13,324 nt of DNA from a virus. The stretch lies in UHGV virus genome UHGV-1735583; one strand, written 5' to 3'. Made by a program: the position numbers. Positions 12,001 to 13,324 of the stretch are shown here, one piece after another (within the stretch, counting starts at the first letter, position 1; each line of letters opens with the position of its first letter).

Positions 12001-13324
12001 CTCGCCAGGCGGTGGAAAAGAAAATGGCAACCAGCATTAGTGAAAATGAAATGCCGACAATTACACAGAGGATCTTCGCCAGCGTTATGAGTTTGTCTGA
12101 CATGCTTAATCCTCCCTTCACGATTTCAACGCAATGACCAGTTTTGCCAGCCCATACAGCATCGGGGACACAGCAACACCGACCGCCACCCACTTAATGG
12201 CAAAAGCCAGTGCTCTGCTGATGTCATCAGTTACAGGCGCTTTCAGTTCAAGGCCGTTTTTCATAGTCAACCTCAACAGAATTCGTTTATACTTTTCCAT
12301 GTTCTCCCTTGCCTTATCCAAGGTCAGAAACACAAAACCCCGCTTGCAGCCAACAAACGGGGTTTTTACTTTTATTCACTTAGTTTTTGTCAGTTCGCAG
12401 GATTTCGTGTTATCCGTCCGTGTGAGCAAACCGCATTTTTCAGCAAAATATTCTGCTTATCTGTCAATTCCCCAGCACGCCAGCGCACTCTCCTGGTCGC
12501 GACGGGATACCTGACCGTAACAGTTGTTTGAGCGAATACGGCAGTCTCTGCCACCGTCCTTAATCCACCAGCGAATCGCTTCGCATGCTCCCCTGCGATC
12601 ACCAGCATTAATTCGTCTGTAAAACGTCGACGGGAAACACTTACCGGGACCAATGTTGTACGGACAGAATGACGCGATCCCCGCTTTCTGGGGTTCGGTC
12701 AGCGGCACTCTGATGTTTTTCTCCACCCACGCCAGCGCTTTATCACGCTCAATGGCGTTAACCTGGTCGCATTTTTCCTTCGACAACTTCATGCCCGGGA
12801 CGACAGGTTTGCCATCCACCATGATGGCACCTCGGCAGATGGTCCAGATACCCGCACCATCACGGTATGCCGTGGTGTGGTTACCTTCCTTTTCATCCAG
12901 AAACTGGTCGAGAATGTCAGGCGCAGATGCGCCTGCAGTAATCAGCGCCAGAATGGCAGTCGACAGGCCGTATCTGATTTTTGCGTTCATGGATATTTAT
13001 CAGGATTTATCGGTTCCGAATCCCTGGATATGTTAAGCCTTCACCCCGCCAGTGGTGGGCACTGGCCAGGGTATGTCAATCTGATAAACACAGAGGTGAC
13101 TATGGATTATCCAAATCTACCAAAACAAACTTTTGCTGATTTAATCGCACTCAGGCAAGCAGTCGTAGCTCTAATCAACGTGTTGCCGGATGAGGAAAAG
13201 GAATTAGTTAAAGCAATTCTTAACAGAACTGCCGCCGATTTTTCATCATTCCCACTGACAGATGACCTTGCGGACCTTCCTGAATTAATTGCAGCGTCCG
13301 CCATTAAGCTTACTGAAGAGATTT

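Follow-up and report, generated by a model that had tools for sequence, protein, structure and literature searches.

What occupies the position upstream of the endolysin gene R in the prophage UHGV-1735583, where a holin gene would be expected, and is this prophage devoid of a holin? The window analyzed here is the full 13,324-nt stretch of UHGV-1735583, which stops at position 13324 and corresponds to the late region of a short-tailed lambdoid prophage of Escherichia coli. Every late gene in the window is on the minus strand, including those for an N4-gp56-type capsid protein, portal and terminase, a Rha-family gene, the Rz/Rz1 pair, and the R endolysin, which is annotated as lysozyme in all relatives. 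The N-terminus of R (MNAKIRYGLSTAILALITAGASAP) is rich in Gly, Ala, and Ser and weakly hydrophobic; by eye, and in the light of what is generally known of phage 21 and 933W-type endolysins, R looks like a signal-arrest-release (SAR) endolysin. Two additional small ORFs for membrane proteins and a hairpin are located between R and Rz. The features of the lysis region and of the segment that adjoins it up to the end of the window are the following:

11497-11964, minus strand: Rz (PF03245)
11559-11744: Rz1, nested in Rz
12457-12990, minus strand: R endolysin (phage lysozyme), 177 aa (PF00959, E = 3.4e-24)
12800-12990: mosaic patch and recombination junction at the 5' end of R, delimited by differences between the window and PhiR12_1
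12995-13011, plus strand: 17-nt leader motif ATTTATCAGGATTTATC, with two TTTATC repeats spaced 10 bp
13006-13034, plus strand: candidate weak promoter, TTTATC-N17-TATGTT
13041: left boundary, by alignment, of a segment of ~0.5 kb that is absent from Stx2a_WGPS2
13048-13066, plus strand: hairpin gccagtg-gtggg-cactggc, presumed part of the 5' leader of the plus-strand ORF
13093-13099, plus strand: Shine-Dalgarno sequence GAGGTGA of the plus-strand ORF
13102-13324, plus strand: plus-strand ORF, the first 74 of 86 codons, encoding a small acidic protein (phrog_2572) and cut by the window end
13107-13304, minus strand: antisense Ser-rich ORF, 65 aa, considered a shadow of the plus-strand ORF

The initial annotation reported that no holin gene could end at or overlap the start of R and that an AT-rich ORF reading away from the late operon begins there instead, and both observations hold. 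The five minus-strand stop codons on which the first of these relied (12997, 13033, 13041, 13076, and 13107) are all present, together with additional ones at 13000, 13007, and 13100. None of the three minus frames stays open beyond the 51 nt next to the R start, and no holin-sized ORF in the window abuts R. The sole minus-strand ORF of the region, at 13107-13304, encodes a Ser-rich product of 65 aa that, as described, contains no hydrophobic segment; it is wholly antisense to an ORF of a conserved family, is annotated in no relative, and was rejected both as a gene and as a holin. No ORF within 12991-13324 fits a holin, considering the composition of this product and that of the plus-strand ORF, which is acidic, with a GRAVY of about -0.1. 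The plus-strand ORF starts with the ATG at 13102, is preceded by a good Shine-Dalgarno sequence, and reaches the window end after 74 codons. Over 13102-13324, the GC content is 41.7%, compared to 54.3% in R and 52.8% in the window, and in a GC scan of the window, only 0.9% of the 223-nt segments were as AT-rich. The hairpin noted between R and this ORF exists as well, at slightly shifted coordinates: the 6-bp stem is formed by 13049-13054 and 13060-13065, and a seventh G-C pair widens the structure to 13048-13066, with a 7-bp stem. This hairpin is statistically ordinary (fold z = -1.38), contains one mismatch without compensation in loci of the Salmonella type, and is neither kept nor alignable in the metagenome locus L016, the most divergent of the homologous loci.

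The segment 12300-13324 is matched over at least 80% of its length in 308 complete E. coli genomes, and several phages match it at 98% identity. Over its last 334 nt (12991-13324), the window shows no difference from phage PhiR12_1 or from a prophage of strain JNEC-KY204. The gene order on the late strand of PhiR12_1 is Q, an ORF of ~2 kb (a SASA-family esterase in the KY204 annotation), two small genes (DUF1378 and DUF826 in that annotation), S, a DUF1327/YdfR-family gene, and R, with the plus-strand ORF located on the opposite strand between the latter two. The S gene product of PhiR12_1 is a 71-aa protein of the PF04971 family, "P21 holin S" (E = 7e-33, 112.8 bits), and the DUF1327/YdfR-family protein consists of 169 aa (E = 2e-34). 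KY204 shows the same order, with a YdfR pseudogene and ~127 additional bases. Phage 2H10, the Qin prophage of GmM066, and six STEC-type genomes share the succession of S, YdfR-family gene, plus-strand ORF, and R; in one STEC-type genome, an IS element is inserted in the YdfR-family gene, and S is intact. A PF04971 class II holin is encoded 0.83-0.96 kb upstream of R in every annotated locus that we opened with the plus-strand ORF beside R, the distance from S to R being 1.3-2.2 kb in two variant loci, and Q lies 4.5-4.9 kb upstream of R in the loci identical over the window end.

Because 12991-13324 is identical to these holin-bearing loci, the holin gene of UHGV-1735583 can be placed just beyond the window, very probably ~0.8-1 kb past its end. 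The suggestion that the holin is truly absent is therefore not supported. Comparison with related prophages revealed a normal holin and Q region farther upstream of R, the alternative that the initial annotation had itself set against its suggestion, and the "missing holin" is most readily explained as an effect of the window edge, judging from the identity of the last 334 nt to other genomes. This removes a false alarm: the prophage would not be holin-less, its lysis cassette being merely interrupted. The records of phages PhiR12 and PhiR5 give E. coli K-12 MG1655 or E. coli C as the host, which suggests that the arrangement with S and R split apart supports lysis.

The complete plus-strand ORF, present in locus L001 (9803-10063), encodes a protein of 86 aa that matches phrog_2572 end to end (positions 1-86 of 86, E = 3.6e-50); the same family is matched by the Salmonella-type homologue P0025 (6e-24) and the L016-type homologue P0021 (8.5e-40). 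In RefSeq, this ORF is annotated as hypothetical proteins WP_001625288.1 and WP_001306174.1, and the annotations of phage 2H10 leave it out. A word-indexed search retrieved nothing beyond E. coli alleles with at least 81% identity and some fragments; an exhaustive HMMER search and a profile search extended the family to Salmonella enterica and metagenomes, with full-length homologues that are 89-93 aa long and 38-48% identical. All homologues lie on the strand opposite to the late genes. The start and the frame of the ORF persist at this level of protein divergence in the Salmonella and metagenome loci, and the ribosome-binding site is retained in other lineages as TAAGGA. Length variants differ by in-frame two-codon indels, the only kind of indel observed, and each of the remaining frames across the ORF contains 3-8 stops. 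The pN/pS ratio is 0.34-0.61 in each pair, near or distant, and roughly 0.3 in distant pairs after a saturation correction (hand arithmetic), where a value of about 0.5 indicates only moderate constraint. These comparisons across lineages show the plus-strand ORF to be, in all likelihood, a real protein gene that is moderately constrained and fast evolving.

The 86-aa protein has a pI of 4.3 and a net charge of about -7.5 and is not hydrophobic. AlphaFold2 modeling with an 11-sequence alignment predicted helices at residues 8-27, 30-48, and 56-74, with a pLDDT of 70 (61 from the single sequence). No significant functional match to the protein was found in Pfam, NCBIfam, PADLOC, the PHROG function categories, PDB, or BFVD. 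The PADLOC result bears on the defence-system search proposed in the initial annotation, which thus gave nothing significant, and Foldseek comparison to PDB and BFVD produced no hit with E below 1. The Salmonella and metagenome homologues received no functional assignment from Pfam, NCBIfam, PADLOC, or the PHROG categories, P0025 and P0021 having no Pfam match. Several apparent leads were discarded. The DUF1823 (PF08853) label given to this protein in the PhiR12 records corresponds to 15.3 bits, against a Pfam gathering threshold of 25 bits, with E = 0.023 and over 30 residues only; AcrIIC4 surfaced in a PDB profile search at only E = 0.68; and two fungal-looking TPR/CHAT repeat proteins, with HMMER E-values of 1e-5 to 1e-8 summed over the repeats, were judged to be helix-repeat mimicry. 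Literature searches covering ydfR with holin, DUF1327, PhiR12, and holin-endolysin morons turned up nothing about the plus-strand ORF. The ORF is accordingly catalogued (phrog_2572, RefSeq hypothetical proteins), yet uncharacterized, and its leader, terminator, and portability are not on record.

Conservation extends on both sides of the ORF. We aligned the unit from E. coli, Salmonella, and metagenome loci, among which the protein has diverged to about 40% identity, and the best-conserved 20-nt block across this alignment is the region of the 17-nt motif ATTTATCAGGNTTTATC (12995-13011). The motif lies 5 nt from the R start codon, at the 5' edge of the plus-strand unit. Of the 28 loci fetched, 22 contain a single copy at an equivalent relative position, among them Salmonella and metagenome loci with a protein that is 38-48% identical; the window has one copy, against 0.04 expected. 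In the candidate promoter, the hexamers and their spacing are kept, with TATTGT as the second hexamer in the Salmonella-type loci, and the spacer has diverged; a scan upstream of the ORF called no consensus sigma-70 promoter in any of the three lineages, TTTATC-N17-TATGTT being below the threshold.

Just past the stop codon of the ORF, there is a terminator hairpin, which in E. coli consists of a 12-bp stem followed by U7 (z = -3.4) and is retained in the Salmonella-type loci (z = -3.3) and in L016 (z = -4.0). All 8 consensus pairs are kept in six sequences, with one compensatory change from G-C to A-U, as a result of which two codons of the late-strand frame that overlaps the hairpin are different. 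A simple terminator scan did not list the hairpin, which we attribute to the extension of the stem using up the T run. A search of Rfam found no family in the window or over the S-R interval. Taken together, the alignments show the leader, the ribosome-binding site, the 86-aa ORF, and the terminator as what appears to be a self-contained plus-strand unit.

The minus-strand reading of the 17-nt motif, CCGATAAATC / CTGATAAATA, resembles the H-NS nucleation motif tCGATAAATT (Lang et al. 2007, PMC2094087). Matches to tCGATAAATT with at most two mismatches are not above chance (11 observed, 9.1 expected), and as an H-NS site, the 17-nt motif is not statistically distinctive and remains a lead only.

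In every lineage, a late-strand ORF is open across the terminator hairpin and the last 53-59 nt of the plus-strand ORF. In E. coli, this frame is fused to DUF1327; in Salmonella, it is a separate ORF of 73 aa. The E. coli and Salmonella-type frames are 25-29% identical, with pN/pS of 0.64-0.95, and the residues common to them coincide largely with the hairpin and the overlap with the plus-strand ORF. On the strength of these identity and pN/pS values, the C-terminal extension of the long YdfR-type protein was downgraded as a candidate conserved "partner" domain. A recent experimental lead exists for DUF1327 at the N-terminus of this protein: in K-12 YdfR, residues 1-72 bind RNase E at its N-terminal domain, and RNA co-purifies with them (PMC13232886).

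The unit is present in 294 of the 5,426 complete E. coli genomes (about 5%) and in 8 of the 50,697 phage records, those of PhiR12 and PhiR5 among them, and a scan of species-representative genomes detected it at a single locus, in E. coli. In Salmonella prophages, the unit follows the DUF2514 spanin gene and precedes a DUF1441 gene, in the small-terminase position, and is again encoded on the opposite strand, with its 3' end overlapping the 73-aa late-strand ORF. The unit is thus portable: its site in E. coli is the S-R interval, and in Salmonella it sits at the junction of the spanin and small-terminase genes.

Several relatives lack the unit. In JNEC-KY173, the closest relative over the whole window, S adjoins R, with a gap of 4 nt. 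In Stx2a_WGPS2, S is followed by a short ydfR and R, with no plus-strand ORF, and 51 nt of the leader (12991-13041) are retained and join the 3' end of the short ydfR. The K-12 Qin prophage (essQ-ydfR-rrrQ) is about 93% identical to L016 on both flanks, and a single clean gap of ~565 bp removes the unit and leaves ~10 nt of the leader. K-12 Qin and Stx2a_WGPS2 look like deletion derivatives, and the familiar essQ-ydfR-rrrQ layout accordingly appears to derive by deletion from a unit-bearing S-R slot. Given that the empty forms keep unequal lengths of the leader, independent deletions of an older unit seem a more parsimonious explanation than repeated insertions. The initial annotation had proposed that the region could be a moron site with horizontally acquired cargo, or else a rearrangement breakpoint. 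The moron part of this proposal is supported by an opposite-strand, AT-rich unit with its own ribosome-binding site and terminator that is missing from the closest whole-window relatives, and the breakpoint part finds support as well (see below); recent acquisition does not, as the unit looks old in its slot and repeatedly lost by deletion.

The slot can also hold a different gene. In Stx1a phages (e.g., Stx1_14040), the leader is kept through the 13048-13066 hairpin and is followed by a distinct plus-strand ORF of 210 aa, with the ribosome-binding site AGGAGA, that is unannotated in the Stx1_14040 record. Full-length homologues of this protein, at 53-65% identity, are encoded in a Salmonella prophage remnant, next to sodC, and among lambda-like tail genes, on the strand opposite to these; both are typical moron positions. 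The 210-aa cargo received no functional assignment in Pfam, NCBIfam, PADLOC, or the PHROG categories. The S-R interval is, then, a moron-type accessory slot in which the leader and terminator are conserved and the cargo can be exchanged, and the S-R junction of phage 21 and Stx-type cassettes is hereby documented as a recurrent accessory slot, for cargo of either 86 or 210 aa. These cargo proteins occur widely among pathogenic E. coli and in Salmonella, and they are reasonable candidates for lysogen-expressed functions.

With respect to the breakpoint, the window is identical to a JNEC-KY173-type phage up to about 12450, and the similarity to the closest whole-window relatives, which are also the nearest in the structural genes, breaks off near 12957, within the 5' portion of R. 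The window is also identical to PhiR12_1 over 12100-12799 and 12991-13324, with 8-10 differences per 100 nt in the intervening 12800-12990. These alignments point to a breakpoint at R that is real in the ordinary sense of lambdoid mosaicism. Overall, the locus is a fresh, tidy example of ordinary phage mosaicism, with nothing pointing to an unusual mechanism.

We consider it likely that the window ends in an S-R module of 0.83-0.96 kb that comprises a late-strand YdfR-family gene and a backward, plus-strand moron-type unit, with the holin gene beyond. The unit would act as a moron, with a weak or regulated promoter within the conserved leader driving transcription in the direction opposite to that of the late operon. 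We infer that this transcription would take place chiefly in the lysogen, where the late genes are silent, and would end at the unit's own hairpin. In the lytic cycle, RNA polymerase modified by Q and arriving from S would pass through the hairpin and the antisense ORF and reach R. In phage 21-type lysis, the class II holin acts in trans, and the endolysin is exported via Sec; S and R would not need to adjoin for lysis, and their separation would be harmless because a holin that acts in trans can serve a Sec-exported endolysin. Our best guess for the 86-aa protein is a lysogen-expressed accessory protein, host-modulating or anti-defence, rather than a lysis protein. An accessory role is favored over that of a lysis regulator because the lysis proteins that flank the unit in E. 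coli are not related to those in Salmonella. The constant nearness to lysis genes in two genera could nevertheless reflect a lysis-related role instead of a generic moron one.

A true loss of the holin, which would make the lysis cassette defective or rearranged and the plus-strand ORF the mark of the scar, appears very improbable. The window indeed contains no holin-sized minus-strand ORF upstream of R, and there is a mosaic junction in the 5' end of R, but the last 334 nt are identical to loci in which the PF04971 holin gene is intact and located 0.83-0.96 kb upstream of R, S is kept in all annotated E. coli loci that we opened with the plus-strand ORF, even where an IS interrupts the YdfR-family gene, and phages of the same layout have been deposited as propagating phages. 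It is also unlikely that the plus-strand ORF is a chance antisense frame, with the long DUF1327/YdfR-type late-strand ORF being the real gene or the segment being a non-coding spacer. The late-strand ORF covers just the last 53-59 nt of the plus-strand ORF, so that most of the latter has no competing frame, and all other frames are interrupted by 3-8 stops. Furthermore, the frame, start, and ribosome-binding site persist in the Salmonella and metagenome loci at 38-48% protein identity, the indels are in-frame, and a conserved terminator follows the stop codon. What would fit a spurious frame is the pN/pS among alleles, which falls only to 0.34-0.61, along with the negative promoter scan, the absence of functional annotation everywhere, and the omission of the ORF from the 2H10 annotations.

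Doubtful as well is the possibility that the unit, instead of being generic cargo, serves lysis timing or lysis safety. In lysogens, read-through into R could be damped by convergent transcription and by RNA polymerase occupying the leader, which is 5-45 nt away from the R start. In accord with such a role, the unit is always in or beside a lysis cassette, in two genera and with unrelated holins, endolysins, and spanins, its leader abuts the R start codon, its 3' end always overlaps the late-strand frame, and YdfR, through residues 1-72 of the K-12 protein, binds the N-terminal domain of RNase E. However, that the lysis proteins of the two settings are unrelated makes a specific protein partner unlikely, the Salmonella unit is far from any endolysin start codon, and the late-strand partner region shows little constraint across lineages (pN/pS 0.64-0.95). 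Moreover, the alternative 210-aa cargo occurs in non-lysis positions too, and the post-spanin and tail-gene regions, exemplified by lambda bor and lom, are generally known as classic moron sites. We regard as improbable a dedicated, portable backward cassette of lambdoid lysis regions, made up of leader, ORF, and hairpin, in which the 17-nt motif would be a regulatory site, possibly for H-NS nucleation, and either the small acidic protein or the convergent transcription would tune the expression of the endolysin or the RNase E-binding YdfR-type protein; if true, this would be an unrecognized layer in pinholin/SAR-endolysin lysis.

The moron-type interpretation can be set against known systems. 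Morons were reportedly defined by Hendrix and colleagues, with bor and lom as the lambda-type examples; lambda bor is located on the opposite strand just after Rz/Rz1. Like bor and lom, the unit is a single small opposite-strand gene in or beside the lysis cassette, with its own terminator and lower GC content, and, similarly to lambda-type morons, some phages have it, whereas close relatives, with the flanking genes adjacent, do not. In Salmonella, the unit occupies a bor-like position after the spanin genes. Unlike the products of bor and lom, the 86-aa protein is neither a lipoprotein nor an outer-membrane protein, being acidic and predicted to be a cytoplasmic three-helix protein. The unit differs from bor and lom also in that its promoter is only a candidate, its 3' end and terminator are inside a late-strand reading frame, and in E. 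coli, it splits S from R, an unusual place.

The lysis cassette itself resembles those of phages 21 and 933W in the family of R (PF00959), the nested Rz/Rz1 (PF03245), and, in the relatives identical over the window end, the PF04971 S. In contrast to the S-R-Rz/Rz1 order of those phages, S and R here would be neither adjacent nor translationally coupled, with the YdfR-family gene and the unit between them, and two more small membrane-protein ORFs and a hairpin separate R from Rz. K-12 Qin (essQ-ydfR-rrrQ) shares the holin family, the DUF1327 gene in between, and the lysozyme family, but lacks the plus-strand unit, and its ydfR overlaps rrrQ by 4 nt. The Qin prophage of strain GmM066, unlike that of K-12, still carries the unit.

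The interval between the class II holin gene S and the endolysin gene R, within which the window very probably ends, partway through a plus-strand unit (leader motif, 86-aa ORF of phrog_2572 and terminator hairpin), was found in several rearranged forms among relatives. In the Qin prophage of K-12 MG1655 (L008 6055-6370), about 565 bp of this unit, relative to the metagenome locus L016, are absent at the ydfR-rrrQ junction; the unit is still present in the Qin prophage of strain GmM066. Judging from this sequence comparison, the K-12 junction seems to have arisen by clean deletion of the ~565 bp, an event that would also have produced the 4-nt ydfR/rrrQ overlap. 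The JNEC-KY204 prophage is a further rearrangement variant of the slot: an additional segment of ~127 bp lies directly 3' of the terminator hairpin (L002, ~10120-10250), and the annotation treats the gene of the YdfR family as a pseudogene whose C-terminus is missing. In an O145 STEC genome (L013 4459-5672), the long form of the YdfR-type gene, located between S and the plus-strand ORF, is interrupted by an IS element with rve and HTH_Tnp_1 transposase domains.

The Stx1a phage Stx1_14040 carries different cargo behind the same leader as that of the window:

L005 1331-1963, plus strand: 210-aa ORF, not annotated in the record; ribosome-binding site AGGAGA

Genes for full-length homologs of its product (53-65% identity) sit next to sodC in Salmonella and among lambda-like tail genes. 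What the phage record lists in its place is an antisense ORF of 263 aa, which shares 252 nt with the 210-aa ORF and may have been annotated too long.

Residues ~11-30 of the 86-aa ORF (window 13132-13191), which make up its first helix and the adjoining turn (FADLIALRQAVVALINVLPDE), are similar to the repeat unit of P0020 and P0022, two long TPR/CHAT-type proteins from the exhaustive search. This likeness probably reflects helix-repeat mimicry rather than homology.

Beyond the slot, the late region of the window contains the following features:

12800-12990, 5' third of R: distinct mosaic patch encoding the N-terminal hydrophobic segment
12334-12366, minus strand: strong terminator-like hairpin, 14-bp stem AAAACCCCG...CGGGGTTTT
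12118-12300, minus strand: small ORF between R and Rz; 60-aa hypothetical protein in relatives (phrog_1115, unknown function)
11972-12103, minus strand: small ORF between R and Rz; 43-aa hypothetical protein in relatives (phrog_4906, unknown function)
10769-11320, minus strand: Rha-family regulator gene

The R patch differs from phage PhiR12_1 by 8-10% mismatches, and both flanking stretches are identical to that phage. The terminator-like hairpin follows R directly and precedes the neighboring late-strand ORFs, so the lysis cassette carries punctuation on either side of R. The products of the two small ORFs each contain a single hydrophobic, transmembrane-like stretch and matched no holin family; they could be lysis accessories. 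The Rha-family gene, located between the spanin and terminase genes, adds a further accessory insertion to the late operon of phages of this type.
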